Below are positions 1-20,000 of a stretch of DNA of 20,000 nt, piece by piece. Position 1 is the stretch's first letter, and the number at the start of each line of letters is the position of its first letter. A model generated the notes under the pieces. It searched no databases, was not told the origin of the DNA, and was given only the letters and a program-made list of their open reading frames with translations. The translations under genes were made by a program, and so were the position numbers. Origin of the DNA: Perkinsus olseni (taxonomy: Eukaryota); assembly GCA_013115125.1 (NCBI GenBank), contig JABANN010000077.1:59425-79424 (forward strand), in the 5' to 3' direction.

Positions 1-1817
1 GTACCTGTTCCAGAGCTAGATCCACCTTAGGCCGCGCCTCAGGGGCCTTCATTAGAATCTCCGCAGTGAATGACCTCAGGGGATCTGGAAGGGCGATCGA
101 CCCTCCCTTCTGCCTACTACTCTCCCTACCAGTAGAGGTAACATAAAGCATCATGTCGTTGATGCTGATGGAGCAGGGATTGCCTCCCAGCCGTACCTAC
201 AGAAGACGAGAAGAAGTCAGCCTGCCCTCAGCGGAGGTATCACCCTACGTGTCTCATTGGCTCCAAGTGCTTAGCAAGGGTAGCCCACGGCTCGTAGGCC
301 TTCATGGCCATCAACCTGAGGTCAGTGGGCCTCCATTGACCGAGAGGCGATAGCAGGGGACGCTCACGTCGGCTGCGGTAAGGGGTAGGTGAAGCAGCAC
401 TCGCTGAGTGACGATAGGAGTATCAACTGAAGAGAGGAGAGTATCAGGCCACCTGTGACTACCGGCTAGGGACTCGCTCAAATTTCCGCAGCAAAAAGTC
501 CGCGAATGCCCGTAGACGGGTTCGAACCCACGGCCTCCACCATGCAATCACAAGGCTCCATCCAACAGCGCTAACGCTCAACCACCTCCCGGTTACATGC
601 GTTCGTGTCTCCCGACACGTGAGCGCCAACTTGACCAGTCTTGGAAGAATCTCCTTGTTGAATTTGTCCTCAAAGCTCATCGGCGTCTCTACCTAACCCC
701 CCAGCAACCATCCAACTCCCCCACTGCAGCAGCAGTACCTCCTCGAGAAGAGTTGCCTCCATGAAATCAGCATCCATGAAGGGGCCCATCAGGATGAGCA
801 CGCCTGGCTTGAAGTCAGATACGTACCTAGGGCAGCGGCTGAGGGCAGAGGCCCGCGGTACGGGCCCTACTTGGCGATCATCTCCAATCTTTGCCCACCA
901 TGCACTTTACCCTTTACTGATTGGAAGGGACCGCTGGCGCATACGACGTGGATAGGGGCGCCGTCGGCATGCGCCACCTCGAGAGAGATGCTCGGCCTAG
1001 CACTCGACAAGTCTCTTGCGATAAGTTACAGCATTCCTACTCCTCATTGGTGACCTTCCTGCCCCATTCCACGCCGGCTCCCGTGACCATGCCCTCAGCA
1101 ACCAGCTCGCCGCCACAGCTGTTGGGGCTTGTACGACCAATAACGCCAACCACACACCCAGGGAACACTGAAAGCATCATAACCAGCACGAGCACGACTC
1201 CCCTCCTACAAGTGTAGCTGTCCAACGCCTGCACGTTGAGAATCAGTCGCTTTCCTCGACCGCTCGCCCCTGGCCCTCCTGAGCGGGAACGGAGGCTCGC
1301 GACCTTCGGTCAGTGCCGGGGCAGTACCAGTGAATATAGGTTCTAAGAGCAGACTCTGTGGGTTGAGGTTAAGCGGGTCTGGAACCGGCTGGAGGTTCTC
1401 ATCCGCCTCACAGCACACACGACCGACCATGAGGACAGCCTGACTGTACCTGACTCGCACAGCCCTTACCGCGTGGGACACAGCCCTGGCCGTAGCCTCA
1501 CTGAGTGCCGAACACTCCTATCTCCAAGTCACCCTCCTCTTCCTCCTCAGGATGCATCGAACGGTATAGCTTATTCGCCTGTAGAAAGGTCGTCGACACT
1601 TGGGGGCCAAGCACGGGCTACGTTGGCGACGATTTCGGTATACAGCTTTGCACAACGGGCCGCCTCCCCTTCTCGTCGGCTCTCCACTGAGTTGTCCATC
1701 CACCGATATCTGTCAGTACCGCAAGAAAAGGAATTCCCGGACTGCCCACCCTCACCCTTGGTACTCCCCGCCATCAAAACGACTGTGGGCACTACGAGCT
1801 GATGCCGCTGCCGCCAT
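1..1817 (-). CDS. POLA2: DNA polymerase alpha subunit B (Pol12/POLA2-like), multi-exon, 3' end beyond left edge of window
   Basis: Manual splicing over GT-AG introns (e.g. 1710-1755, 427-596) gives MAAAASARSAHSRFDGGEYQG/YRWMDNSVE..., MVGRVCCEADENL...LNPQSLLLE, SVFPGCVVGVIG, IHVVCASGPF, KPGVLILMGPFMD, LILLSSLSECCFTYPLPQP, LGGNPCSISINDMMLYVTST/DPL. These follow the known order of B-subunit motifs (GRICCD, SLFPGQ, AAGPF, PDVLILMGPF, YPQPP, NPC.INGV). Family assigned from memory of the motifs, not from a search. Confidence 0.9.
493..497 (-). terminator. Candidate RNA polymerase III terminator (TTTTT) 9 nt after the tRNA-like element
   Basis: AAAAA at 493-497 on + is T5 on -, immediately 3' of the B-box-containing element. 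Confidence 0.4.
507..580 (-). pseudogene. Degenerate tRNA-Ala(UGC)-like element (pseudo-tRNA or tRNA-derived SINE head) inside the POLA2 intron 427-596
   Basis: Minus strand reads TGAGCGT-TAGCGCTGTTGG(A-box-like)-ATGGAGCCTTGTGA-TTGCATG-GTGGAGGCCGTG-GGTTCGAACCC(B-box)-GTCTACGGGCA. Spacing is tRNA-like, with TGC at 544-546 in the anticodon position. Acceptor, anticodon and T stems pair poorly. Confidence 0.6.
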
Positions 1818-1942
1818 GCTCCAATACAACACTGGGCGCCCCGTGAAAGTGAGTACTCAACCAAACCCCACTCCTCAGCAGAAACGCCTTACAATACTAC
1901 AGAGCTAATTTACACTGAGCAGACACCTCCTAAAGGGCAACC

Positions 1943-2884
1943 TCAGCCACTGTCATCAGCGGGTCCTTCGACCATGATGCGCATAAGGACGCCATAGACT
2001 CGTACAGCCTCCGCAAACGTCGGTGCTCTGAATGTTAACGGCACTTTAGCAATCCTGCTGTCCTTATACCCACCCTTCAGAGGGCCCACAAAGATAGAAT
2101 TCTGGTCCTGCCGAGGAGATCCAACCAAAACTAGCGTCTTCGGGTTCTCCAGATACTCCTTCCACCGCTCTGACACCACCTCCAATACATCTTGCCGTAT
2201 CTTAGCGTCCTGCGTGCGTCTCATAAATGCCCCCATCGACTTAGCCTGTTCGAATTTCCGCTGCGCACCTCCCTGCTTGCGTCGTACCGTGTACTTCTTA
2301 AAGGTAGTGTGCTCAACTATTTTTCCCTCAGCGTCCCAGACGCAGCCGGCGAATCGTCCGCTGCGGAAGAGCAGCAACACGACGAACTGCAAACTCCCCC
2401 AAACATCGGCATCGATCGTCGAGGCGAGCGCTATTCGCGGCGAGGAGTCGAGAATCTTCCATGGGTAATTGTCCATTATGAACCCCTTGCTCGGCAAATC
2501 CGTGGAGCTTTCGCTTTCTCCACCAGACTCCACCTCAGAAGAATCTTCCGAAGAGTCGCAACAGCCGAGCGAGGCTTCCAGCCATTCATCGTAGCCCAGC
2601 GGCGAGGCCCCGGACTGAGCCCGCTTGACATTCTCCACGTGCCATTCGCTCTTACAGTGCTGTCTGAGCGCTGATGAATCCGTATAGGAATACTCAGGGC
2701 ACTTGGAGCAGTGACGGCGGTACGTCCCACCCGCGAAGCTGACCCTTCCACGACTTGGCTGCGACGGCGTGACGCGCTCAGGCATGACCCGTTGGCCAAG
2801 GCCGTACAGGCGCCTGTACCGAATAGCCTCTACTGGTGGAAGAATCCGCCATCCCACGGGCGCTGTACTGGACCACATAGCCAT
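1943..2884 (-). CDS. Vms1/ANKZF1-like protein (C2H2 zinc finger + VLRF1 release-factor-like domain), 313 aa, single exon
   Basis: Uninterrupted ORF with CSKC...RQHCKSEWHVEN zinc finger, an acidic linker, then LLFRSGRFAGCVW...HTTFKKYTVRRKQGGAQ. The last part matches the Vms1/ANKZF1 VLRF1 catalytic loop (YTxRxKQGGSQ-type). Confidence 0.88.
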   Translation of the reverse strand: MAMWSSTAPVGWRILPPVEAIRYRRLYGLGQRVMPERVTPSQPSRGRVSFAGGTYRRHCSKCPEYSYTDSSALRQHCKSEWHVENVKRAQSGASPLGYDEWLEASLGCCDSSEDSSEVESGGESESSTDLPSKGFIMDNYPWKILDSSPRIALASTIDADVWGSLQFVVLLLFRSGRFAGCVWDAEGKIVEHTTFKKYTVRRKQGGAQRKFEQAKSMGAFMRRTQDAKIRQDVLEVVSERWKEYLENPKTLVLVGSPRQDQNSIFVGPLKGGYKDSRIAKVPLTFRAPTFAEAVRVYGVLMRIMVEGPADDSG

Positions 2885-3000
2885 ACCAAAACAATCGCTA
2901 AAGACTGGCGACTGCGGACCAGGGGACTACAGAAAAACTCGAGGACGATACCACCCGACACAACAACATCATGAAGGCACTGCAAACTCTGTAAAAAGAG

Positions 3001-3015
3001 CTGAGAGAAAGAGAG
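3001..3015 (-). promoter_or_regulatory. Polypyrimidine tract + AG acceptor upstream of the Vms1-like ATG (5'UTR intron acceptor or trans-splice acceptor)
   Basis: Minus strand CTCTCTTTCTCTCAG ending at 3001, ~117 nt upstream of the ATG at 2884. Confidence 0.35.
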
Positions 3016-3476
3016 CACCTCAACTTGAAAGTTCAGAAGGCCTGAGGATCGGAATGCCTTGGTGAAGTAGCAGAAGTAGCAGTTTATGGGAAATAGTCAA
3101 TATGTAATCTGACGCCCTAATGGTCTAGCCCTGATCGGCACTGCTGCCTCACACAGCGAGGAGGACAAGAGTACCATGACTGGGCCAGTCAGACTGGCTG
3201 TGATGACGGGGAAGAGGACCTACAAAACTGCAAAATCAACGCATAACTCGCCGAAAGAGACCCACCAAGTCTAACGGCCACTGACAGACTCGTCACTTCT
3301 AAGGCATCAGAGCGAAATCTCCCACGTTAGTTCCCTAACCCATTACGCATCGTCATTCCACAACGACCATCCTCGCCACAGTGAACTACCCTAGTTCACG
3401 CATCGGGAAGTGTGATCTTGTCGTCCCTCCAGCAATAGACAGCAACACTCACCTCGGCCACTTTCTGCTTTACACC

Positions 3477-6400
3477 TCATTCAGCCATACCGGGCACTGC
3501 TGGTCGCAACTCGGGTGTTGTTTCCGCGCTGCTCGATGCCTCGTTATTAGCTGCGAAGAGCTTCTTCCTCTCAATGAGTGGCACTTCGCTGGCGTTCTTC
3601 GCTGTCAGCTCAATGCCAAGGCCGCGACGCTCAAATAACCCACATACAGCCTCAGTCATGGTATGCACGTGGGATCGACTGACAAGAGCGGTTTGCTAGT
3701 ACTTTGGATGCCTCCAAGACCCCTACTTTTCCTCCAGCTCGGTAAGCGCTCTCTGAGTTCTTCTCATCAACGTCGTCATCTTCGTCCGACTGAGCGGCCT
3801 GTCTTTCGTTGTGAGGGTGTCCTTCGCGACCGCACAAATGTCGTGATGCTCCTCATCCTCGATCAACACCTAAGTGACCATCGCCATCGGCGATACGGCC
3901 CGACCCCGCGAGAGCCGGGCAGATGTCCTCCGGAAACCCCCACACACACCGTATGCACCAACGTATTGTGATGGCAATAGCCGCCCGAGAGGCCGGACTC
4001 CCAACCCGTTATAGCGGTCCTTAACTTACCAGATCACGAAGCAGCTCCCGATCCACCTGCTTGGTATCGTGACCTCCATGCTCGCGCCCATCTAAATAAA
4101 GGATTCAAGCGGTCAGATGCGGTGGGGAGGGCTGCGGGTGCTCGCGCCTCCGTCACGACATCAGATCAGCACTGTCGAAGCGATCGATCAATCACTAGTT
4201 TCACAGGGGACAACAACGATCCTCACCTGCCGAGCCTTGAGCGAGCTGAGTGGCCACCCACCAGCTATCCCGAACGAAGATGAATGGAGCGAGAACGATG
4301 AAGACCAAGAACTCGAAGATGCCGGCCACAACACCTGAGGGCTCAACTCACGACCGGAGTTGGCGGTGGGCGGAGGCGTACCAATGAAGAAGCCGTAGAC
4401 TCCTCCTGTATGGCCCCCCTGTACCATACCCTTGAATAGGGTCGTTCCGGCATTGAGTGCTTTCACCTGAATCAACAGCGAAGTTCGTAGCACGTGAGAG
4501 TGCAATAGAAGGACATACGAAGTGAACATAGAGGATGCCTCCCCGAGTCCTTCCCCAATCGGCTGTCCTCAACGGCGCCACCAATACTCCCTGGGACTCC
4601 GATAATGCTACAGCACAGACGGGGCCTGCCAAGAAGGAGGGGGTGTGGGATTGGTAGATGTCATTGTTGTTGTTTACATAGTCCAACATCCCGTACTGTA
4701 TCATGATACTCAGCAGCCCGCGGCCTGTATGATATATCATCTTCTTCCCATCTACCCATCACTCGACATAATTCACAAGTCACGAGCTCTAATGGCAACT
4801 GCCGTTGGAAGCCGAGGGCCCCTTCATGAGCACCCATACCTCGCCTTCGCTCCGCCTGTAACAAGTTCCGGTACAAGACAAGGTCGCCAGGCAGCCTCGC
4901 CGGGCTCACCAAGAATCCTCTCTGCAACACCCTCGCTGCGGCTCTGGCCTCCTCGGTCATGCAGTACTTCAGGGCAGATCCGATCGCCTTAGCATTCACG
5001 TTCTTCTTGTGAATAGAACGCCCAGCTCCGTGCAGTTGGACCAACCCGCCTGAAGAAGGGGTGGGTACGAGGATGAACAGGGGATACTCAGGTCCACAGG
5101 CTACCCCAGATCCACTGGTCCCCGAAGAATGATATGACGGAGGTTGGTAGGCCGAAGTCCAACCCCATAGCCGTGGTACCAGCACCTCCATGATGCATAA
5201 CAGCACAGCACTTAGGGAATAGATAATCATGTGGTATACCTACAATGGAGGGGTACCGATAGTCGATAGGCTGATGATGATTATGTACCCGATAGGAAGG
5301 CTATGTTATCCTCTCCTAATGCCTTCAGTATATCATACTCCCAAGTACCCTTGGCATCCTCTACTGATGATGAACCCGCACAAGCATCACAGAATAGACC
5401 ATTACTGAAATAGACAGCACTAAGATCTCTGCTCCTTGATGGGAGCCGCTGGAATGAGCCGACGAGTAACCCAGGTAGCCCCTTCATCAAGCGTTGGAAT
5501 CAGCCTAGCCATCTCAAGCCCCTTGACCCTACTGTGAGTAAGCATCCGGCTCCCTGCCACAGTTAGGGCAACGTGCAGGGGGATCGCAAATGAAGAAGAC
5601 CCGCTGCTTCAAGTCTGAGAGAAGGAGGAGTATGCCGGACACATCTCTACAAGCTGAAGTCACCTGGGACGTCGGCGAAATCCTGAGCGGTTAGCTTATT
5701 GAGAGAACACCATCCCTTCTGAAGGACAACTCTGAGGTCGGGCATCTCCTTAACGGCCTGCAAGATGGGCTTGTATCTGAGCAACCGAGTGAATGCGTCA
5801 CTGCGCCACGAAATTGCATCTCACATGTAGGAGAGGTCCCCACCGATGCTGCCGAAACCGATGTAGAAGGGCTTGGGCCCGCTGCTCAGGAACTTCGCGA
5901 GGTTGGAAGGCGGTACGTAGGAGGTGTTCTCTTTATCTAAGATAAGACTCTGTCCCTAACCCCACGTTAGCACTCGAGAGATCCGCCTTACCTGAGCCAC
6001 TGCAAAAGCCCGTTATGTCGATGTTCGGGCCCCAATCCGGAGGCTTCGGGAAGAGGGACGGCGAGAAGCAGTAGGAGAAGGGCACCTGTAACAAAGCGCC
6101 ATACACCTCGAATTCGAATACAATTGTCACATCATGATAGAATAAACAGGGCAATGACGATAAACCCATTGCCATTGCCCTGGCGCGATGGGTCAACTTC
6201 TGAACCCAGCGGGGTTTGATTGCGTAAATTAGCATTCGATCGTCTGTACACTACTAGTATCCGTATACTGCCATCTCAGTTATTCTTATGCTCCTTCACC
6301 AAGATTTGGTATGAACGCATCAGGTCCAGTGCTACTGCACCCCATCATCATAACCACTCACCCCCCAGTCCTCTAACAAAGATCCAGCACTGTGCCACAT

Positions 6401-9400
6401 CCCTATTTTAGGAATGTGGAGGACCTCCGCCCTAAACTTGGGTACAGCCGACGCCATACCTCGCCATTGCATCTGAGATACTTCCTTAAGACACCCGAGG
6501 GACTAGCAGCCAGAACTCACCTGATCGAACCAGCGGTAGCTCAACAGCCGCCAGTACGGATTGTCGTGGATATCCCCAGAGCTGAACGGGTGCCCCAGAA
6601 CCTTAGTCTTGGACCAAGGCATCGAGAAGAACCTGCAGTGGACAACGTGGAGTGGCTTCAGTGCTGCGGCGATGGCCTACATATGGAGGGGGACGCCGAG
6701 CCTCTCAGCGAGGTGTACATGGATGTAGGACGGTGGATTAGCAATCATGGCGTGAGTCACCCAGCGGCCTTCGGGATCACCTGCGGCGCGCGACATTTTT
6801 CACAACGTAACTGAGGCCGACTTACTCTTCACTGCAGCCCATGCCCCAACCTTGTCGGTCCGCCATCCGGGTGGGAAGAAGATTTCCCGCAAGGACTCCA
6901 TCATACCGGGAGTATGCAGCAGCACGTACCACATTTCACGAGGGTTCAGCAGGAACCCAGGGCTCCATGAAGGACCCTCTGCTGCGTGCCTGACGACGGA
7001 TGTCACGAAAAACAGCGGACGGGAAGACAGGCGTACCTCATGAAGTCCTCTGGCTGCCAATGACCAGGGGCATCGAGGGCCATGGGGAAGGACTCTACGC
7101 CTTCCTTCTCTACTATATCCCGGAATTTATCATGGGTGCAGATACGACAATGATGGCCCATCGCATTGAGCTCCTGTGAGGTGAAGGAAATGTGGTATTG
7201 ATGTGGTTGAGTTATTACCTTGGAAATGGCGATGTAGGGCTCAACATCTCCACGGCTGCCAACATCAATGAGGGTGATATTCATCCGAGGGACGTTATTA
7301 CCCTCCGGTCGAGGGAACATTATCGGTACCTAGGGAGGAGAGGTGCGCCTCATCCAGTCTGATGGGCTACTGATGGTACCAAGTCTGGACGACGACGTAC
7401 GATGCCGTTAATGACAACTTGCAGTCTGTGCATTCTCGTCTCGATAACACCTTCACCAGCATGATCAAGATTATCGAAACTCAAACATATGTATCTGGCA
7501 CTCGTCTGGGTAGACACGTAGCATCCTGTGAGGCCTACTGTTGCCATTGCCCAGGGTTGCCACTCGCATCACGAACGAGCAGATCCCGTAATCTCCTAGT
7601 AGACTGGAGAGAAAGGTACGAACCTGCTGGAGCAGCGACTCCCCCGGCGGAGACAGACCAAGGCCCAGCCGCTTCCCGAAACCGCACATACCTTGTTTTC
7701 GATGCACTCGGAAATAGTACATAGTCTTGGCATTGAATTCTGTAGCACATCCCTCCACAGATACATACGTATCAGGAGAGGTGGGAACTTTATCCCGGGA
7801 CATGGCCCAGAGTAGTCGCCAATGACTTTCAAGATTGAGGGTGTATAGGAAGGCTGAGAGAAGACAAGTTGGGCGGCGGAGGGTCGACGTGTCTACTCAC
7901 CGACTGCAATGACTAAAACGAAGTTGACTAAGTCGGCCATGGACAAGAAGACGGAGGAGTTCTCCAACCAGAATAACGAGCTGAACACGACAGGAAGCCA
8001 CGAAGTACGTATGTCCATTACCAGGACAAATTCCGGGTCTGCGGACTTACCTTGCGATAACCCCGGTAGTAACGATGACGTCGATGCACAGGAGAGGCAA
8101 GACGCCAATATGGGACATGCTCACATGGCTGGCTATAATAGTAAATAGCCCCTGAAATCAACGTCTGCCTCCGCAGAACGCTGCACATACCAACTTACCG
8201 GGTCAGCTACCCAGACTATCCTGGAGAGTACCGGAACATGATGGTACGGATTGATCGGGTCTGGTGGTGTCTAAGACAAAGCAGGCAATGGAGATTCACC
8301 AGCAAGAGCAATGAGGGGGCGAATGCTGCTGTGATGGACTTCTCGGCCAAGATCCGTCTTACATCTTCCATGGCTCTGCCGAAGTTGTAAACGTATACGC
8401 AAGAGAACAAGGAAGTAGACACGAAGAATAGGAGGCCGGCCGTCAGTAGCCGCCAAGAATTGCCAAAGGAAACGACAGTGAGACAAACGGATACTAATAG
8501 TAGTAGGGCGCTCGCGATTTGGACCTGCGGAAGAGAACAGCACCCTAGATCATCCATCTGACCAAGCCAGGAGTAAGCAAGGAGCACCCTGGCGAGCAGA
8601 TACTGTATGGGTGGGTGGTGCGCCCAGTGAAATCAACGACCACGATAGGCTCTATTGCCAACACACAACAAGCTAACGCGGAAAGGGCCACATCGGACCC
8701 TGTCCAAGCTGTACTCCAGCATCCACACTGGTCAAAATGGAGGTCATTCAGCACTCAAATGGGCTTGAAACTATGCAACGATCGGCAGCATTCATAGTGC
8801 CATATCCGGAATCTACTCAAAGGGAATCTCTCTCGGGAGTTGGTACCGGCGAGGCTGCACACACAAACCCGAAATTACGCAGGTATGTTCTCTACCGAGT
8901 ATAGTAAAGTCTACTCCTCATCCGTTTGTTGCACAATTCAGCGACCTATGAGCATTTCATGCACATCTCTCATGCCCAGCAAAACAAGAGGAAACAGGTA
9001 AATTTATTCCTCAGCTCAACCCCAACTCCTGGAGGTGCTCTTGCAGCAGCCAACCCACCGATCAAGGCTTACCACGACGCCAGCCACCATGCTAAAAGTG
9101 TTGCCATCCAGAGGTCCATGAAAGTTAACAGCAACAAAAGTCATTGCGACGACCAATCTGACAGAGAAGCGCCGTGGTAACGGGGAGCCTCAGCAGTTAC
9201 TAAGCTTACAATAGCACACCAGCGACAGCCCATCTCATATGGCGGGTGATCCAAAAGGTCTGTCGCGATCTGGCCCACAGTCGGTATCTAGTCCAAAAAC
9301 CGTACGCACGTAGGGAACAACAACCGCAGACGCAGCGTAACGTACTCTTTCTCATCGAGACTGCTGCTGAACTTATGCGAGAACGGCTCTCTGTAGTTAT

Positions 9401-10812
9401 CATCAAAATACTTCAATAATGAGGAGGACACACCCTGAAACAAAAAACGTCTCGCTCTCTCCGGACGACAATAGAAAGATCTCAAGAGCACCGCAATGGG
9501 CTACATCAGCGAGTTATGCCGGACGAAGTTCTGATTCCTGGACAGGCTCCGCTGCGCGAGGGCACAGATAAAGTAGAGTAGCAGGGGAATGGTTGGCTCA
9601 CGTGAATTCCCAGATCGTAGGAGCCATCCTTGTTCGTTCTGAACTGCAGCCTATCCATCATCAGCGAGAATAGATCAGCTTGAGCACGAAGCAAGTTACT
9701 ACTACCGACCAGACACAGGCCGAACACCTGAGAAAGAGTATGCTACTGATAATGCTGTAGCGATGCCGTAGACTTACGAACCAGTGGCAGAGTACCCCTG
9801 CCCACATCATCATCATGTAAGATGCAGTGTAACGGCCAGTGTAGCTGTAGGCCAGAAGCGCGATGTCGGATCCTGAACGACAGAGTTTGTGGAAAGTTGC
9901 GGACGCAGTGGAAGACTCACCGATCAGGTAAAGCGCCACCGCAAGGAAACTAACACTAGGGAAGATTCTCGAACTCATGCATGTGAGAAGCAAGACCATT
10001 GGGATGGGCATCGCCCTGGCCGGAGTAAAGGTCGAAGGGTCACCGACCGCACAGACGAACTCGCACACTAGCGTTAGTAGAATCGAAGTGGCCACTATGG
10101 TATGGGTATGCTTGACGGCGGGGTTGAGGAGTAATACAACACCTCCAAGCAGGAGCATCAACTGAAGGGAAGTGTGGGGGAGGGCAGCAGTGAGGAGGCG
10201 GTGGACTTACCGGCCCGAGTATGAAGTAGAAGTATCCCACCCAATTCTGGAATGGTTGAGCTAACAAAATCGCAGTCTCCTCATCTTGCTGTACAGCGGC
10301 TTTTGTGAGGAAATAAGTTGATAAATGCTCGGCCGTGTAGACAGCAAAACCAACAAATAGGAGGCACACCCAATAACGAAAGTTCCAATTATTAAATGCA
10401 TTCCAAAACTGCATTGAGAAGTTACCTGATTGGACGGAGATGATCACCTCAAGTCGGCCGCCGACCCCCAACTCACCCAGGAAGAGATACTCCCCGGCAT
10501 TCACATCTTTGGTTTCGCTGTCGGCGTCCTCATAAGCTCGACTAATCCTCAACAGCTCAGCAGGCGACAGACTACCATCAGACCCTATCCTCGGTAAGTC
10601 GGGCGGTTTACCTTGAAAGAGTAACATCAACGATACAGCTGGAGCGACAATAGGCACCAACTCCGCGTCACACGAGAGCAGGAAGCCCCACAGCAGCAAC
10701 GGTCGCTACATGGTTCTGAGTTCACTGCGGAAGCCTCCGTGGAGCCCTCAACGTCTGTCTGGACCCCATCGAAAGAGCTTTCGGGGGACTGTGCAAGATA
10801 GGAGCGAATCAT
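3477..10812 (-). CDS. Polytopic membrane protein-sterol 3-beta-glucosyltransferase-like (GT1) fusion, copy A, many exons
   Basis: Start MIRS (ATG 10812) is shared with copy B. Hydrophobic exons ~10430-7830 splice in frame into a linker and then GT motifs [17 protein letters not shown] (~7280-7235), [61 protein letters not shown]...SFFGDQ (~5230-5115) and [15 protein letters not shown]. Last exon ...[13 protein letters not shown]...GMAE* stops at 3477. Not every exon junction was checked. Confidence 0.8.
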
Positions 10813-11264
10813 CGGAAAGAAAACAGATGGAATAGCAGCACTGGCAAACACCCCCATGGCACTCCATGGCAAGCTGGCTCAACGCGAAGTCACAAGGGAT
10901 ACGAGAAAAAGGGATGAAAGCAAGTTTAACGAGAAAGAAGAACCGCCTGTTCCCAGCAGGCGTTCTCTGAGGCAGAATCGCGAACGACCCGCGAGACCGA
11001 AAATGAACAACGTTATTAAACTTCATCTAGTAGAAACAGGCCCAGCCGTTACAATCAACTGTCAGCCACCGATGGCATGAGGCCTTAGCACGACTCCGGT
11101 ATACTCTCGAGAACAGTGAGGAAAATGGCACCTGAGCAGCACTTGGCCGGTAACCATCAATCTCGTCTTCACTATGCCTCGGTGACGAGCGAGCTCCAGG
11201 CCCATTGCCTTGGAGGGCTAGAGAGAGTCTCGGCCACATTGCAGTGTGAAGGCCCGTGCTCACC

Positions 11265-12274
11265 TTAGGCCCCTCTTAGCGGTGTCTTCATGTTCCTATC
11301 ACTATCAGCACCAGCAAGAGCTCTGTCGTAGGGATTCAGCAAGGGTTCCTTGTAGGCGCTCTTAGCTGTGAGCTCGATACCAACGCCACGACGCTCGAAC
11401 AGCTGGCATGCTGCTTCGGCCATTGCCCGCACCCGAGCACGACTGAGGTAGGAACAGCTGAGCCCCTCTGCCAGCCCGTAGTCCTCCTACTTCGCCTCAA
11501 GCTCGCTCAGCGCCCGCTGTGTCCGTTCAGTGAGGAAGGCAAGCTCCTCCTCATCCAGCACCCTATCGTCGGCCCCTACGCTGCTCGCTGACACCGCCCG
11601 GACATCACCGTAATTCTGATCATCTACCAGAACCTGAGTAATCACTGCGCCTAGGGACTTACCAAACAGGAGCGTACCAGTCCCTTGAGCAACTCTGCGT
11701 CCGCCGTCTCCGCGTCCCGTCCTCCAAGCTGCCGTCCATCTAACATGTCACAGCGAGATGGCAGCACTAGAACCGCCCTCGTAGGCTACCTGGTGAGCCT
11801 TGGGCGAGCTGCGTCGCCACTCTCCAGCTATCACGCACGAAGACAAAGGGCGCGCACACGATGAAAACGACGAACTCCAGGATGCCCGCGACGACTCCTA
11901 CAGGGGGAGGGCCATCATGACGGAGATGACGTGGCGTGGCCCGAGGTGCTCACCGATGAGAAAGCCGCGGATGCCTCCAGTCTGACCACCCTGAACCATC
12001 CGCTTGAAGAGCCTTGTCGCAGCCTTCAGGCCTCGTACCTGCTCCAAGAGAGAGCGCTGAATCCGGAATAGAGAAGGTATCGAGAGCGATGGGGGAGGGA
12101 GCCGCATTGAGTGCTGGGGAGAGATAGCTTACGAAGTGAACATAGAGGATGCCTCCCCGAGTCCTTCCCCAATCGGCTGTCCTCAACGGCGCCACCAATA
12201 CCCCCTGGGACTCCGATAATGCTACAGCACAGACGGGGCCTGCCAAGAAGGGAGTGTGGGACTGGCAGTTGTCG

Positions 12275-12332
<58 letters not shown>

Positions 12333-15300
12333 CATAGTCCCACATCCCGTACTGTATCATGATACTCAGCAGCCCTCGGCCTGTATGATATATCATCCTC
12401 CTCCCATCTACCCATCACTCTACATAATTCACAAGTCACGAGTTCTAATGGCAACTGCCGTTGAAAGCCGAGAGCTCCTTCATGAGCACCCATACCTCGC
12501 TTTCGCTCCGACTGTAACAACAGACAAGGTCCCCGACACGACCCTCTACGGCGTAATGAGATCGCTCACCCGGAAGCTCTCTTGGAACCTCTTGGCTGCA
12601 CCCTTAGCACCAGCAGTGACGCTGAACTCCAAGCATTCCTTAACACTTTGCGCGGTCACTCGATCTCTCCGCAGGAACTTTCCCGCCCCATGCAACTGTA
12701 CTAGCCCACCTAAATAGCACGCACACATAACAGTACTCCGACAAAGGAAGGGCAACAACAGAACCGCCGCCTGCTGCAGTCCTTACCCCAGATCCACTGG
12801 TCCCCGAAGAAGGATATGACGGAGGTTGGTAGGCCGAAGTCCAACCCCATAGCCGTGGTACCAGCACCTCCATGATGCATAACAGCACAGCACTTAGGGA
12901 ATAGATAATCATGTGGTATACCTACAATGGAGGGGTACCGATAGTCGATAGGCTGATGATGATTATGTACCCGATAGGAAGGCTATGTTATCCTCTCCTA
13001 ATGCCTTCAATATATCATACTCCCATGTACCCTTGGCATCCTCTACTGATGATGAGCCCGAACAGGCATCACAGAATAGACCATTACTGAAATAGACCGA
13101 AACAATCGGCGGCAAGAACCAATCCGGACGGAGCGCCTCACTCAGCCCAATCGCCAGCCGACACTAGAAAAGCTCCAAGGAACGGGTGGATTTTCGGAAA
13201 GAAACAACGACGTTACTGGTGCCACCAAAGCGCTAGTGCAACCCTCTTTAGAGCTTACTGTGTGTACGAAGCGTCGTTCGTATGACACTTCGGGCAGAGT
13301 TCAGGAGGTGTGGCAATCAGGAACACTCTCTCCCGAAAATCTGAGGCAAACACGCGTGCCCAGTACGGTCTGTATACGGATATTGTATCATATGCTCACT
13401 CGGTATGGCGGCGAAATCCTGAGCGGTTAGATCATTCAGAGTACACCATCCCTTCTGAAGGACAACTCTGAGATCGGGCATCTCCTTAACGGCCTGTAAG
13501 ATGGGCTTGTATCTGAGCAACCGAGTGATGGGCGTCACTGCGCCACGAAATTGCATCTCACATGTAGGAGAGGTCCCCGCTGATGCTGCCGAAACCGATG
13601 TAGAAAGGCTTGGGCCCGCTGCTCAGGAACTTGGCGAGGTTGGAAGGCGGGACGTAGGAGGTGTTCTCTTTATCTGATGGAAAAGAACGCTTCCACGATG
13701 ACCGCGCGCCACGAAATTGTCAATAGGTGGAGTAAGTTGTACATCCTTTGGAGCACACGCCGGTGATCTCAATGTTCGGGCCCCAATCCGGAGGCTTCGG
13801 AAAGAGGGACGGCGAGAAGCAGTAGGAGAAGGGCACCTGTGACGAAGGACCAGCGTGCCATACTTATGACTCAGTCAAGCGACGAAACCGATAACGCACA
13901 GCGGAGAACGCAATTCTCAACTGAATGCGGAATGCCCAGAGACTCCTTCGGACCCCATCCCGGCCTTCCCACGAACGAGGCGGTCGATAAACTTAGTATC
14001 GTACCGTTCATCATCGAAATGCCACACGAAGCCTCGTGCCAACCCGAGACATACAACGACCGAAAACGACGAAGTGATGACGAAACTTACCCCCCAGTTC
14101 TCCAAGAGGGACCCGGCGCTGTGCCACATGCCTATCTTAGGTATGTGCAACACCTTCTCCCGGAACTCATTCACCGCTGCCGCCATACCGTGCCATTGCA
14201 TCTGGCACGACCACCCGTTAATACAGCGCAATTATAAAGCCTCTCTCATCAGTTGAACCGAGGCCACTGTACGGATTAGCTTTTTCACGCTACCTGGTCG
14301 AACCAGCTGTAGCTGAGCAGCCTCCAGTAGGCATTTTCATCCAGCTCCTTAGAGCTCATCGGATGCCCCAACAACTTCGTCCGTGACCACGGCATAGGGA
14401 AGAACCTAATTGCAGCACAGACACCCTCCACCGTCGATATCGAGACGACAGAAGCAACATACATATGAAGAGGCACCCCCAGCCTCTCAGCGATGTGAAC
14501 GTGCACGTAGGCAGGGGGATTGGAGATCATCGCATGCGTTACCCAACGCTTCTCGGGGTCACCTGAAGAGCTCGGAGATGTCCCGCGGGAACACAATTAT
14601 ACGGGTATGAACCAGTTGTAGAGGACAACTTGGCATTCATCGACTCCGTTATTGGGCACGTTAACGTCTAATATCCACGCTATCACCTACTACGATCACA
14701 TCGGAGCCCCAGAAGACCAAGTGTTCGAGATGAGCGGTTGCAAGGAAGAGCCAAGCGCTGCAGCAGAGCAGCTATGGGTCTCTCAAGGCTACTGTTCACC
14801 CTTTCCGCCTCACTTCTCACAGCAGCCCATGCTCCGATGTCATTGTTCTCCCATCCCGGTGAGAAGAACAGCTCACGCACAGACTGCATCATCTCAGTTG
14901 TGTGCTGCAGAACGAAGGACATGTCATGGGGGCTGATGAGGAACCCTGGGCTCCAGGAGGGGCTCTCAGCGGCGTATCTGGCGGACGAGTTGCTGAGTCC
15001 GACAACGTCACGTGGTCTAACCCACCGCATCAGAACCTCTGGCTGCCAATGACCTGGGGCATCGAGGGCCATGGGGAAGAACTCTACGCCTTCCTTCTCT
15101 ACGATATCCCGGAATTTATCATGGGTGCAGATACGACAATGATGACCCATCGCATTGAGCTCCTGTGAGGTGAAGGAATTATGGTATTGATGTGGTTGAG
15201 TTATTACCTTGGAAATGGCGATATAGGGCTCGACATCTCCTCGACTGCCGACATCAATGAGGGTGATATTCATCCGAGGGACGTTATTACCCTCCGGTCG

Positions 15301-18300
15301 AGGGAACATTATCGGTACCTAGGGAGGAGAGGTGCGCCTTATCCAGTCTGATGGGCTACTGATGGTACCAAGTCTGGACGACGACGTACGATGCCGTTAA
15401 TGACAACTTGCAGTCTGTGCATTCTCGTCTCAATAACACCTTCACCAGCATGATCAAGATTATCGAAACTCAAACATATGTATCTGGCCGAGAGATCTCT
15501 CACGGAGTCGGTCCAGTGGAGCCCGAAGGTGCTCACTGTTGCCACTCTAGGGGTTCCCTTTCAGCATCCTCAACTAGAAGATCCCTCAGCCTTCGAGTTG
15601 ACTGTAAAGACAGGTAAGAACCTACGCATTGTCATGCGCACCGCGGTGGGCCGACTGAGTACTCCTACTTTTCCCTTGATGCACTCGGAAGTAGTACATA
15701 GTCTTGGCATTGAATTCTGTAGCACATCCCTCCACAGATACATACGTATCAGGAGAGGTGGGGACTTTATCCCGGGACATGGCCCAGAGTAGTCGCCAAT
15801 GACTTTCAAGATTTAGGGTGTATAGGAAAGCTGAGAGAAGACAAGTCGAGCGGCGGAGGGTCGACAAGACTACTCACCGACTGCAATGACTAAAACGAAG
15901 TTGACTAAGTCGGCCATGGACAAGAAGACGGATGGATGCTCAAGCCAGAACTCCGAGCTGACCACAACGTGAAGGATTCGGAAGGAAACCCGTGGAATTG
16001 CAATCGTGCAGGCAGATTCACCTTAGAATAACGCCGGTGGTAACGATGACGTCGATGCACAGGAGAGGCAAGACGCCAATATGGGACATGCTTACATGGC
16101 TGGCTATAATAGTAAAGAGTCCCTGAGAAGCGACGTGTCTTCAAGCATGACCGTGCGTGAAGCCCCACTACCGGATCTGTAGCCCAAACCATGCGCATCA
16201 TGACTGGCGCGTAGTGAACCGCGTCCACGGCGTCCGACTTCCACTGGAAGGAAAGAGAAGCTGAGCGAGGAGCGGCGACAGTCGTCGTCACGCCCTACCT
16301 CCTCAACTGCCCGGCCGAAATTATAGATATACACACAGGAAAACATCGCTGTCGAGACGAAGAAGAGCAAACCAGCGGTCACCAGTCGCCGAGGCTTGCC
16401 AAATGAAACGACAGTCAGACAGACCGATATCAATAGTAGTAGGGCACTCACGACCTGGACCTGTGAGAGAACAAAATGGTACGCAAAGTCGATAGGAGGC
16501 GACCCAGCTTACCACAACTCCCGATACCGTACTGGCGGTGTTACCATCAGGGCCAGCATGGAAATCAGCCGCCACGAAGATCATTGCAGCAATCAACCTA
16601 CACAGTCGGAAGAGAATGCTACCACAGCTGAACCCGTCAAGGGCTCTTACAGGACGACTCCTATGATGGCCCACCGCATATGTCGAGTAACCCAGAACGT
16701 TTGCCGGGATCGTGCCCACAGACGATAGCTGAGATGGTGACACAGTCGATAGGCTTATCTACACGCGGTGGTCTCACTCCTTCTCGTCTATCCTCTTACT
16801 AAACGCTGGTGAGTAGGCCGCCTTGTAGTTATCCTCGAAGTAATTCAACATGGGAGCACTCACATCCTGAGAGGGGCAGTCACCATGACCTAGTGGAAAG
16901 TCCACATCACTGTATCGTCACGCGCCATGATTTCAAGGCTGACGATAGCAACACATGATCCGAGTAGAAGGAGTAGCATGTACCGTATATAAGACTACAG
17001 GCTAGATTCGTGTGTGCAATCTACTGGCGATACGGAACAAGTGACGACTCTCCCAACGTGAAGCATCGGGACGACCCGGAGTCCGCAAGCAGTACTGCAG
17101 TGATAATCGCTATCCAGCCCTCATCACAGGTGGTTATGGACAGAATTGAGAGCCAGTCCTCCCACGGCCGCAAGGATGAACTCTAACCATGGACTTACAT
17201 GAATGCCCAAGTCGTAAGACCCATCTTCATTTTTCCTAAACTGCAGCCTATCCATCATTAGATAGAACAGATCAGACTGAGCCCGAAGGAGGTTACTACT
17301 ACCAACCAGACACAGGCCGAACACCTGACGAGGGATGGTGAATACACGCAAGCCGATACCGGCAACCACTTACGAACCAATGACACAGCACGCCGGCCCA
17401 CACCATCATAGTGTAGGGAGCTGGATACTCACCCGAGGAACTATAGACGATGAGAGCGATATCAATGCCTGAGAGGAAGACCATCTAGTAATCACTCTCC
17501 TCATACCCTATCAAAGACAAATGCTCATTCCACCACTTCCAGAGACCGATCTTGTCACTCCAACAGCTAAGCGAAAAACTTGTCAACTCCAAACTCTCTA
17601 CAGCCACAAGAGGAGTCGAAGACTCCCAAGTGATTATAACGCCAATGAGTCAAGACAAACGTCGGCTGAGGCCAAGATTCCGGCCCAGGACTTCCGGAGG
17701 AAAGAGAAATTCAGTATCTCATCTCTGACAATAGCGTGCCGCATGAGCTCGAGATATAAACTGCCTACGACTAAGAGCAAAAAATAAGAGCTCCTACGCA
17801 CCCCCTCCTGAGCGGTTATGATAGCTTACCTATCATGTAGAGGGCCACCGCGAGGAAGCTAACACTTGGGAACAGTCTACTGCTCATACTCGCCAGAAGC
17901 AGGACCATCGGGATGGGCATGGCGCGGGTAGCCGTGACCGTGAAGGGGTTACCGACCGCGCACATGAACTCGCAGATCAAGGTCAAGACAACAGAGATGG
18001 CCACTATGGTATGGGTATGCTTGACGGCGGGGTTGAGGAGTAATACAACACCTCCAAGTAGGAGCATCAACTGAAGGGAAGTGTGGGAGAGGGCAGCAGC
18101 AGTGAGGAGGTGGACTTACCGGCCCGAGTATGAAGTAGAAGTATCCCACCCAAGTTTGGAATGGTTGAGCCAACAGAATCGCCGTCTCCTCATCTTGCTG
18201 TACAGCGGCTTTTGTGAGGAAATAAGTTGATAAATGCTCGGCCGTGTAGACAGCAAAACCAACAAATAGGAGGCACACCCAATAACGAAAATTCCAATTA

Positions 18301-18686
18301 TTAAATGCATTCCAAAACTGCATTGAGAAGTTACCTGATTGGACGAAGAGGATCACCTCGAGTCGGCCGACGACCACCAACTCACCCAGGAAAAGATACT
18401 CCCCGGCATTCACGTCCTTGGTTTCGCTGTCGGCATCCTCATAAGCTCGACTAATCCTCAACAGCTCAGCAGGCGACAGACTACCATCAGACCCTATCCT
18501 CGGTAAGTCAGGGACTTTATTCTGAGCGTCACCTGAGCACTTTCCACATCAAAATCCACCTGCCGCCCAAGCCAGCTCACCATCGCTCGATTGCGAGGCG
18601 TACGGCACGTCAGCTGCAACGCCGGCGTTATCATACACCCCACCAAACGAGGCCTCAGTGGATGGTACAGGGCACGAACGAATCAT
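11265..18686 (-). CDS. Polytopic membrane protein-sterol 3-beta-glucosyltransferase-like (GT1) fusion, copy B (tandem paralogue)
   Basis: Same exon order and splice phases as copy A where checked: MIRSCPVPSTEASFGG..., membrane exons, GSRGDVEPY (~15245), [44 protein letters not shown] (~12880-12797). Last exon ...FERRGVGIELTAK...PLRGA* with TAA at 11265-11267. Confidence 0.8.
12274..12330. repeat. (GTT)19 / (AAC)19 microsatellite within a copy-B intron
   Basis: Perfect 57-nt run inside the GTAAAC...GGCAG intron 12240-12333. Copy A has only (GTT)3 at 4666-4674. Confidence 0.95.
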
Positions 18687-18818: not shown

Positions 18819-20000
18819 TCAGGCAGAAGTCAGAGCGCCATGCAGTAGTTCTCGGCATTCGCTTCCCCCCTCTGCGGCGCACATCTCCTTAACCACCGGA
18901 TCCTTGGCCATAGCAAAGGCAAGGGACCGGGGGTCTTTCGAGGCCACACACATCGCAAGCACATGACGAGGCCAGGCAAGAGAGAGGAAGAGTGAGAATA
19001 GCCGCCGTGACGCAGCTAGGCCTGCGTCGCCATCTGGGCACCTAACATAGAGCACAAAGTCAATAGATTTTATCGCCAGGATCTACTTTCATGATTGACC
19101 CCATCTTGAACGAATACGTTTGTCTAAATATAAAATTGTTTTAGCATAAAAATGGCACAAAAATGTGAAATGGCACAAAGATCAGACTATCAGATCATAC
19201 ACACGTTGAAGCGAACTATCAAAGTGCTTGCCATTTCGATATGCAAATCGCGAAATGCGACGTAACTTTTAGGATTTTACGAATATGGAGTTGGGACTTC
19301 AAAGGAACATGATGAAGAGAACAAATACTGGATGTCATTCAATATTCGTTCTCTCTATGTTCCTCCAAAGTTCCAGCTCGATATCCGTCGAGTCCTAGAA
19401 ATTACGCAAAATTTCGCGAATTGCATATCGAATCGTAGGTTCCCGACTGTCCTCGACCCAACTGTCCCCGACTGTAGGTTTTATAGAGTTTTTTCCGTCT
19501 TAGCCTCTTTCAGTCCGAATATTGATGAAGCATACTAGTGTACCTCTCCCTAGATACCCTATGAGTTGCAGGTCCCATCTCGCTGTGGTGGATGAGAAAT
19601 CTGAACCGTAGTAGCACTAGGCACAAATTTCTTATCATATACATGAACTCAATAATACTCATACTGCTCTTATCCTCATTTTCCTACGCATAAACGAATC
19701 ACACACTGATCGAAGCGAACTGGCTGTCCATGGTCATCAAGCCCACACCAGGCCCACAACTACCTTCCGTCCTCCGTCGAGTTATCGTCCTCATCGCCAA
19801 CCTCGGCCAAGTTGACCATACCAACATCGGCCTTGGCATACCCTGGGGATCTATCGCATACCATCAGACCACGCATCGAGCGCACCACGGAGTCGAAGCT
19901 GACCACAGCTGGTTCCGGAACTCCATCCAGGAACTCCCTGGCCGTGCCGTCCTCACCGAAGCAGCTGAGCAGGTCAACCCATCTACACTCAGCCACCAGC
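18819..20000 (-). CDS. Hypothetical protein, last two exons (5' part beyond right edge)
   Basis: Exon ending at 19764 (...EDDNSTEDGR) joins in frame over a GTAGTT...TTAG intron (19042-19763) to exon 19041-18819 (CPDGDAGLAASRRLFSLFLSLAWPRHVLAMC...HGALTSA*). No family recognised. Confidence 0.6.
19235..19432. repeat. ~200-bp imperfect palindrome (two ~100-bp inverted arms, almost no spacer) in an AT-rich intronic insert; possible MITE/foldback-type element
   Basis: Left arm TTCGATATGCAAATCGCGAAAT...CGTAACTTTTAGGA...GGAACAT...GAGAACAAATACTGGATG versus the reverse complement of the right arm TTCGATATGCAATTCGCGAAAT...CGTAATTTCTAGGA...GGAACAT...GAGAACGAATATTGAATG. Centre ~19335. Confidence 0.85.

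Follow-up and report, generated by a model that had tools for sequence, protein, structure and literature searches.

The window analysed here, a 20,000-nucleotide stretch of Perkinsus olseni contig JABANN010000077.1, is eukaryotic DNA rich in short introns and carries two tandem genes, copy 1 and copy 2, both on the minus strand. Each gene joins a polytopic membrane region to a glycosyltransferase (GT) domain resembling the sterol glucosyltransferases UGT51 and UGT80. This arrangement, a single gene present twice, had been proposed in an earlier sequence-only reading of the window, and both the gene models and the RNA contigs agree with it. All 11 peptides quoted in that reading were recovered on the minus strand where it had placed them, 7 of the 11 in both copies, and the interval it delimited, 3477-10812, runs exactly from the stop codon to the ATG of copy 1.

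The GenBank protein KAF4659366.1 (P0001; 'hypothetical protein FOZ61_004800, partial [Perkinsus olseni]', 1461 amino acids, aa) maps onto 10842..3480 of the minus strand in 36 exons with an exact match of letters. Read from the ATG at 10812, which gives MIRSYLAQ as at the start of the P. chesapeaki proteins, copy 1 encodes 1451 aa and ends with a TGA at 3479-3477. Copy 2 was modelled by global DNA alignment together with spliced alignment in which the P. chesapeaki protein P0002 served as guide, and it is an intact gene at 18686..11268 with 36 exons, 1448 aa, a TAA stop at 11267-11265 and no internal stop. The exon plans of the two copies are alike, with equal exon lengths from exon 3 onward, and the 70 introns (35 per copy) all have GT-AG ends, with the donor consensus G/GTAAG; those of copy 1 are mostly 44-58 nucleotides (nt) long. 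The in-frame GT-AG splicing claimed in the sequence-only reading thus stands, except at its last junction, which was read as PDLVPS/VPIMF from a donor situated 9 nt downstream of that used by P0001 (PDLV/PIMF). Exon 16 ends at two in-frame GT donors 9 nt apart (GTACCA / GTAGCC, at 7371-7380 and 7329) and the GenBank models differ in their choice, KAF4699099.1 having PDLVPS/VPIMF. Only the upstream donor appears in RNA contigs, with the 50-nt skip of the P0001 version found in three of four runs.

The public models of this locus conflict with one another. Besides the partial protein of 1461 aa there is a model of 1014 aa from another assembly, which begins inside the tenth transmembrane (TM) helix, TM10 (KAF4699099.1; P0027), and there are models of 2665 and 2538 aa from one assembly (KAF4693705.1 / KAF4693704.1; P0032, P0034) that fuse both tandem genes, the longer one with copy 2 spliced onto exon 2 of copy 1. 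As the main mRNA the merged form is disfavoured by a spliced leader at 10841 and a joint at intron 1. The P. marinus ortholog is annotated in two pieces (PMAR002105 / PMAR002104; P0007, P0009), a TM piece of 106 aa and a GT piece of 213 aa on one contig of 2320 nt. In UniRef and GenBank these proteins carry the automatic names 'Sterol 3-beta-glucosyltransferase' or 'hypothetical protein'. The RNA-supported structure described below corrects this inconsistent annotation with its partial, truncated and merged models.

To follow the transcripts, Logan contigs of four runs were aligned to 3400-10900; runs X4 and X18 are recorded as RNA, and X1 and X2 were guessed to be RNA. These contigs are short de Bruijn assemblies rather than single molecules and some of them mix the two paralogs. 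Run X18 covers part of copy 1 only, uncovered bins were not taken as evidence, and depth was not used for ranking. Among the 15 joints listed of a total of 39, 11 coincide with introns 1, 2, 3, 10, 11, 14, 15, 16, 23, 27 and 30 of the model and have CT..AC ends on the plus strand, that is GT..AG on the minus strand. One contig, whose letters are of the copy-2 type, spans introns 12 and 13, and short loose ends matching the first letters of the next exon add the removal of introns 17 and 24, which brings the introns of copy 1 seen removed to 15 of 35. Introns 14, 15 and 16, in the region of the linker between the membrane and GT domains, are removed in contigs of X4, X1 and X2, and in these same runs each of the introns lying between exon 10 (TM8-9) and exon 18, within the GT domain, was seen removed. 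In the 3' untranslated region (UTR), contigs of X4 and X2 pass directly from 3451 to 3217 and continue for 242 and 234 letters respectively (the first 30 at 3188-3217), with a GT donor directly after 3451. Loose ends of RNA contigs also map to copy 2, at 12006, 12679, 14092, 15933, 17968 and 18510, which indicates that copy 2 is expressed and spliced as well.

At the 5' end of copy 1, a loose end of an X1 contig at 10842 reads, in the minus sense, CTTGGCTCA and then enters the genomic AG. The letters CTTGGCTCA are the final 11 nt of the spliced leader PmaSL1 as its sequence is printed in PMC3101222 and PMC9399869. The acceptor AG places the start of the mature mRNA 28 nt before the ATG of the membrane region. 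Addition of the leader at 10841-10842 also strips two upstream out-of-frame ATGs from the transcript (GCCATGGAGTGCCATGG; region 10813-10900). In copy 2 a similar CCCCCAG stands 12 nt before the ATG at 18686 and may be the corresponding acceptor, a candidate to which no read lends support.

These results show that each gene gives one mRNA and one polypeptide joining the membrane and GT domains. The frame leading from the TM region into the GT domain is not a product of chance, since two diverged paralogs preserve it, as does a third of about 44% identity, and since it is spliced as modelled. A different explanation would be that the exons for the membrane part and those for the GT part come from two genes or two transcripts joined in error, and the conflicting GenBank models, the P. 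marinus ortholog split in two and the fact that no single full-length read was seen could be cited in its favour. However, the RNA contigs lose every intron from exon 10 to exon 18, no spliced leader occurs inside the gene among the 21 of 26 loose ends listed, the frame is open over the junction in all three paralogs, and a transcript from Noctiluca carries both parts in one open reading frame (ORF), all of which makes this explanation highly improbable. The sequence-only reading had itself pointed to transcripts ending, or being trans-spliced, between the membrane and GT exons as the outcome that would speak for two genes, and the contigs show the junction introns removed.

Some of the RNA observations pull the other way. 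The transcript evidence from the TM region to the GT domain is a chain of short contigs, none of which spans the whole mRNA; the spliced leader of copy 1 is documented by one contig of one run (X1); and X1 also contains a contig in which intron 9 of copy 1 is still present (8496-9100, depth 35.8). Two of the 15 joints listed, 6086->7047 and 7494->7701, misfit the model, with sides of 22-23 letters. We read them, without proof, as copy-2-type contigs whose diverged exon fails to align to copy 1. Because no contig covers the whole mRNA, because of these two joints, and because the joints and loose ends at hand are part of a larger set, an internal spliced-leader site may still give an mRNA for the GT domain by itself. 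The features of the two genes are collected in Table 1.

Table 1. Positions of features of the two tandem genes in the window.
Feature	Positions	Strand	Basis
Copy 1 coding region; 36 exons, 1451 aa	3477..10812	-	P0001 exact map
Copy 1 N-terminal hydrophilic region, aa 1-95, predicted cytosolic, ending in conserved FW..F..WN.RYW	10379..10812	-
Copy 1 polytopic membrane domain, aa 96-535, exons 3-14	7831..10378	-	hydropathy
Copy 1 soluble linker domain, aa 536-660, exons 14-17	7294..7830	-	family-wide conservation
Copy 1 GT-B glycosyltransferase domain, aa 661-1165, exons 17-30	4832..7293	-	Pfam, UGT51 match
Copy 1 CPNC...CDAC insertion within GT-B domain	5570-5380	-
Copy 1 C-terminal module, aa 1166-1300: CELC...CPVC, then predicted 13th hydrophobic helix	4276..4831	-
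Copy 1 C-terminal tail, aa 1301-1451, poorly conserved (49% identity between copies)	3480..4275	-
Copy 1 intron 9, 548 nt	8525..9072	-	P0001 map
Copy 1 3' UTR intron, GT-AG, 233 nt	3218..3450	-	RNA contigs
Copy 1 spliced-leader trans-splice acceptor AG; mature mRNA from 10840	10841..10842	-	one X1 contig
Copy 2 coding region, ATG 18686 to stop TAA, 36 exons	11265..18686	-	spliced alignment
Copy 2 polytopic membrane domain, about aa 101-540	15808..18287	-	motif positions, 5-aa shift vs copy 1
Copy 2 GT-B glycosyltransferase domain, about aa 666-1170	12488..15282	-	motif positions

One TM exon, used as the query of a word-based protein search, brought up three proteins of 1452-1461 aa, from P. 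olseni and P. chesapeaki, all with the Pfam families PF03033 and PF06722, and word-based searches with the TM region found Perkinsus proteins only. The tandem arrangement recurs in P. chesapeaki, whose two proteins measure 1452 and 1455 aa (locus tags 010379 and 010380). In P. olseni there is also a third paralog (P0036; KAF4651252.1, 681 aa, partial), which contains the full 12-TM region, the linker and GSRGDVQP up to the end of its contig; its identity of about 44% was measured on P0004, a shorter cluster-mate. Using this third paralog as the HMMER query against 1.84 billion representative proteins, we obtained 13 proteins at E 0.001 or better. The relatives outside Perkinsus include a protein of 1378 aa encoded by an MMETSP transcript of Noctiluca scintillans (P0013; 4320 nt), in which the TM and GT parts share one ORF, and three proteins from ENA metagenome assemblies with the same domain order (P0012, P0017 and P0025, of 1300, 1309 and 1237 aa). 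All four align over their full length, including the cysteine module and the C-terminal helix, and both Pfam halves of the GT domain were found in P0012, P0013 and P0017.

The TM region alone was found in NDC39523.1 (P0019; 459 aa), which is cut by the end of a 1409-nt contig in a metagenome-assembled genome named 'Proteobacteria bacterium'. Through P0019 no relatives were found in 185,579 prokaryote species genomes, and for this reason we suspect that it is probably a mis-binned protist contig. Among metagenome contigs 35 loci were found, and 35 of 35 match the GT part only (query residues at least 510); the family-alignment profile found six loci in prokaryote genomes, again all in the GT part (residues at least 549). 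In the loci examined (16 of 16 metagenome and 6 of 6 genome loci) the surrounding ORF contains no hydrophobic segment, in a rough stop-to-stop reading where some rows lie in another frame. Viral contigs gave no relatives. The fusion of the TM and GT regions is real and rare.

The proteins of copy 1 and copy 2 are 78% identical, with per-exon identities from 38% to 100%. Copy 1 is nearer to P. chesapeaki 010380 (78.0% versus 70.5%) and copy 2 to 010379 (78.7% versus 71.0%), which makes copy 2 the ortholog of FOL47_010379 and means that the duplication predates the split between P. olseni and P. chesapeaki. By self-BLASTN, 7047..7499 is 97% identical to 15036-15488, over exons and introns alike, and a second tract at 5102-5415 is 98% identical to 12784-13097. 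These near-identical tracts interleave with strongly diverged exons (38-60% aa identity). This mosaic is the signature of gene conversion that has acted repeatedly on a duplication antedating the species split.

Homologous introns of copy 1 and copy 2 differ in length by up to about tenfold (intron 9, 548 versus 52 nt; intron 4, 48 versus 361 nt; intron 6, 167 versus 332 nt), introns 4 and 6 of copy 2 lying at 17469-17829 and 16867-17198. Some of the introns thus contain insertions. In these length-variable introns neither an Rfam family nor a clear terminal repeat turned up, only a 15-nt inverted pair at 8478/8920. Rfam and tRNA scans gave no matches. Downstream of copy 1, at 1943-2926 on the minus strand, lies an open frame of 327 aa with a bVLRF1 domain (VLRF1/Vms1-type peptidyl-tRNA release factor; E 1.5e-27). 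Upstream of copy 2 there is a 76-nt inverted repeat (19235-19310 / 19357-19432, 78% complementary, with a spacer of 46 nt), as well as a 24-nt direct repeat (19194 and 19698).

The region following TM12 is a soluble linker of about 125 aa, conserved through the family and with no match in Pfam. Searches of NCBIfam and the PDB with the linker likewise yielded nothing of use. A PX-like assignment of this linker, suggested by a motif resemblance and lacking Pfam support, was dropped. Beyond it, the GT-B domain matches PF03033 (Glyco_transf_28) in its N-half, at 3.9e-16, and PF06722 (EryCIII-like_C) in its C-half, at 6e-12, both above the gathering scores, while PF00201 (UDPGT) stays sub-threshold. 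Among solved proteins it comes closest to the catalytic domain of yeast UGT51 (5gl5/5xvm), matched at E 9e-52 over three stretches, followed by GtfB at E 3.9e-13. The motifs GSRGDV.P, HHGG.GT and FFGDQ align with UGT51, and exon 28, which bears the motifs, is 100% identical between the copies. On these sequence tests the domain classes as a predicted CAZy GT1 sterol 3-beta-glucosyltransferase of the UGT51/UGT80 type (EC 2.4.1.173). No GRAM or PH domain was found at E up to 1 in P0001-P0003 or at E up to 10 in P0036, P0027 and P0023. The four-cysteine module CELC...CPVC at the C-terminal side of the GT domain probably binds zinc.

The acceptor could nevertheless be another lipid or small molecule, such as ceramide, diacylglycerol, a triterpenoid or a polyketide, 'sterol' then being just the name of the nearest relative. 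This could be combined with any role of the membrane domain, and we regard it as possible, if less probable than a sterol. The identity to UGT51 is confined to the three stretches, and the family has insertions of its own, namely the HWQPE region, which does not align to UGT51, and, in some members, the cysteine-rich CPNC...CDAC. Among the genomes and metagenomes scanned, the nearest relatives are GT1 proteins of bacteria, uncharacterised and 30-43% identical (51% for L035, a short fragment), and NCBIfam gave sub-threshold matches to macrolide and rifamycin glycosyltransferases only. However, UGT51 is by far the best solved relative when compared with GtfB, the UniRef name is that of a sterol 3-beta-glucosyltransferase, and Perkinsus needs exogenous sterol according to PMC2868825.

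The membrane domain was delimited by Kyte-Doolittle hydropathy and its topology by the positive-inside rule. Ten N-terminal windows and one C-terminal window reach at least 1.6, and two weaker segments are conserved. This heuristic gives about 12 + 1 predicted TM helices, the N-terminal 12 between residues ~96 and ~535 as six helices, a loop of 81 aa and six more, and a 13th strong helix near residue 1280-1300. The sequence-only reading, with its 10-12 helices, was right about the N-terminal region (10 strong and two weaker) and missed the 13th, as well as the third paralog, the relatives outside Perkinsus and the C-terminal four-cysteine module. Counts of lysine plus arginine (K+R), which are 7-14 for the central loop, place this loop on the same side as the N-terminus and as the segment with the GT domain that follows TM12, and we infer that N-terminus, central loop and GT domain are cytosolic. 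In a Nei-Gojobori comparison of copy 1 with copy 2, the ratio of nonsynonymous to synonymous substitution (dN/dS) is 0.11 in the TM region (dS ~1.2), 0.215 in the linker, 0.21 in the GT domain and 0.12 in the C-terminal module, and by this measure the TM region is under strong purifying selection.

Residue conservation was counted over 7-8 clades in P0001 numbering. The start of TM1 is conserved (W103-N104..Y107-W108), E195 in TM3 is kept in 7 of 8 clades, R226-L-x-P229 in TM4 and both Q289 and D298 in the helix after TM6 in 8 of 8, and Q401 in TM8 and D476 in TM10 in 7 of 7. Charged residues conserved inside predicted helices argue for binding or moving something polar, the identity of which they do not indicate. 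Family searches gave little for this domain: a Pfam hmmscan at E up to 10 found no family common to at least two of five TM-only members, NCBIfam had no match, and a sequence and profile search of the PDB gave only a spurious dystroglycan TM match. No transporter, flippase or sensor family was matched by the sequence (MFS, MOP/Wzx/MurJ, MprF-type, RND/SSD), and hhalign of the N-half against the C-half detected no repeat (probability 0.3%). The nearest cluster in the language-model ESM Atlas, at scores that are uncalibrated for parts of proteins, is one auto-named PIG-C with AC_N on 33% of its members (0.95 for P0025 1-450 and 0.87 for P0001), followed by a bacterial cluster bearing MASE8 (0.90 for P0025 1-450); hmmscan at E up to 10 found neither AC_N nor MASE8 in the TM domain.

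These clusters bear on a second alternative, in which the fusion stands and the 12-TM domain serves as no more than a permanent anchor, a targeting device or a regulatory sensor, in the way proposed for the 6-TM anchors of membrane adenylyl cyclases. It would then handle no lipid, and the enzyme would take its acceptor straight from the cytosolic leaflet. The look-alikes AC_N and MASE8 would suit it, as would the layout of six TM helices, a loop and six more, which fits cyclase-type anchors, and the fact that no transporter family was matched; peripheral sterol glucosyltransferases also function without a transporter, as described in PMC5465953. On the other hand, E, R, Q and D kept in helices over 7-8 clades are unexpected for a plain anchor, the dN/dS of the TM region is below that of the catalytic domain, twelve helices far exceed the needs of anchoring, and the cluster scores are those of an uncalibrated method that hmmscan does not back. 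We consider this explanation plausible and rather less probable than a membrane domain that also handles lipid.

The conserved E, R, Q, D and H within or at the edge of the membrane would also be typical of integral-membrane enzymes, and fusion of consecutive pathway steps is common. The domain could then be a second enzyme, for example an acyltransferase making acyl steryl glucoside, and the whole protein a two-step glycolipid synthase. This we think quite unlikely, as no membrane acyltransferase or other enzyme family was matched in Pfam or NCBIfam and nothing indicates that acylated steryl glucosides are made in these organisms.

On balance we favour a membrane-integral GT1 lipid glycosyltransferase, with a sterol as the most likely acceptor and a TM domain that would anchor the enzyme and probably handle lipid. 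The protein, of about 1450 aa and translated from a spliced-leader-capped mRNA, would run from a cytosolic N-terminus through the 12-helix domain, a cytosolic linker of about 125 aa, the GT-B domain and the four-cysteine module to the 13th TM helix, with its variable tail on the far side. The GT domain would thus lie on the cytosolic face, where UDP-glucose is available, and would use a UDP-sugar, most likely UDP-glucose, to glycosylate a hydroxyl of a membrane lipid. The likeliest acceptor would be the 3-beta-OH of a sterol, reportedly taken from the host, because UGT51 is the closest characterised enzyme and because P. marinus has a requirement for exogenous sterol and expressed sequence tags matching sterol glucosyltransferases, as described in PMC2868825. 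The TM domain would stand in for the GRAM/PH targeting domains of the fungal enzymes and keep the active site at the bilayer. Probably it also binds or moves the lipid substrate or product, by presentation to the active site or by flipping of the glycolipid; such a role is suggested by the E, R, Q and D kept inside predicted helices and by the strong purifying selection.

Several points weigh against this reading. We infer the donor, the acceptor, the topology and any role of the TM domain beyond anchoring from sequence, and the helix count and topology come from the hydropathy and charge heuristic. The TM domain matched none of the transporter families, its look-alikes AC_N and MASE8, which are leads only, hint at sensing rather than transport, and the bacterial relatives with the DHWQPE motif have unknown acceptors.

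A bolder form of the membrane-integral glycosyltransferase can be considered, in which the 12-helix domain founds a new eukaryotic family of lipid handlers that would take up or flip sterol or steryl glucoside, hard-wired to glucosylation. We regard this as speculative and rather unlikely. If it were true, sterol-auxotrophic perkinsids and some of their dinoflagellate relatives would capture scavenged sterol and glycosylate it by a single coupled machine, a 'modify-and-move' device of vectorial action like the bacterial MprF and of independent origin. The significance of the fusion would rise sharply if the membrane domain were such a transporter coupled to glycosylation. As it stands, a membrane-built sterol glucosyltransferase with a conserved 12-helix domain would be a different way to reach a lipid acceptor. 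In a parasite reportedly dependent on host sterol, the fusion may mark a distinctive step of sterol handling in perkinsids and early-branching dinoflagellates, and the fixed partnership of a rare membrane family with a lipid glycosyltransferase offers a testable handle on the role of that family.

No description of a polytopic sterol glucosyltransferase was found in the full-text literature searched, with supplements and most subscription journals outside its scope. The suggestion that the architecture is undescribed holds to that extent, although the gene models themselves were already public in GenBank and UniRef under their automatic names. Sterol glucosyltransferases are textbook examples of peripheral enzymes. 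The fungal ones combine GRAM, PH and catalytic domains, as set out in PMC9698648, and those of tomato and Arabidopsis, in the account of PMC5465953, have no predicted TM helix and behave as peripheral proteins; to the extent that these two sources go, the characterised enzymes are without a polytopic region, as had been claimed. With UGT51/Atg26 and the plant UGT80 the Perkinsus protein shares the GT-B catalytic domain, the Glyco_transf_28 N-half, the UDPGT/EryCIII-like C-half and the aligned motifs. In contrast to UGT51/Atg26 it has no GRAM or PH domain and instead about 12 predicted N-terminal TM helices, and it differs from UGT51 and UGT80 in its linker, the family insertions, the four-cysteine module and the C-terminal TM helix, being predicted not to be peripheral.

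The bacterial GT1 proteins (from metagenome-assembled genomes of Methylomirabilota, Polyangiaceae, Binatia and 'delta proteobacterium', and from soil metagenome) share the DHWQPE and MVFTMPW motifs with the GT part, and their identity, which includes the HWQPE insertion, extends over that part only. The membrane domain is closest, by the language-model clusters, to the 6-TM anchors of class III adenylyl cyclases (AC_N) and to MASE8, and resembles them in having six and six helices with a cytosolic loop; however, the Perkinsus protein has no cyclase domain and, given the absence of hmmscan support, we take this as a lead and not as membership. The last comparison is with MprF, in which, as described in PMC11980842, a lipid-modifying synthase is fused to a polytopic domain that translocates the modified lipid. 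No sequence relation to MprF was found, the order of the domains is reversed, MprF aminoacylates its lipid whereas the Perkinsus protein would glycosylate it, and translocation in Perkinsus is conjecture. The likeness is one of logic, an analogy and not homology: in both cases an enzyme that modifies, or is predicted to modify, a lipid head group is built into one chain with a polytopic membrane domain.

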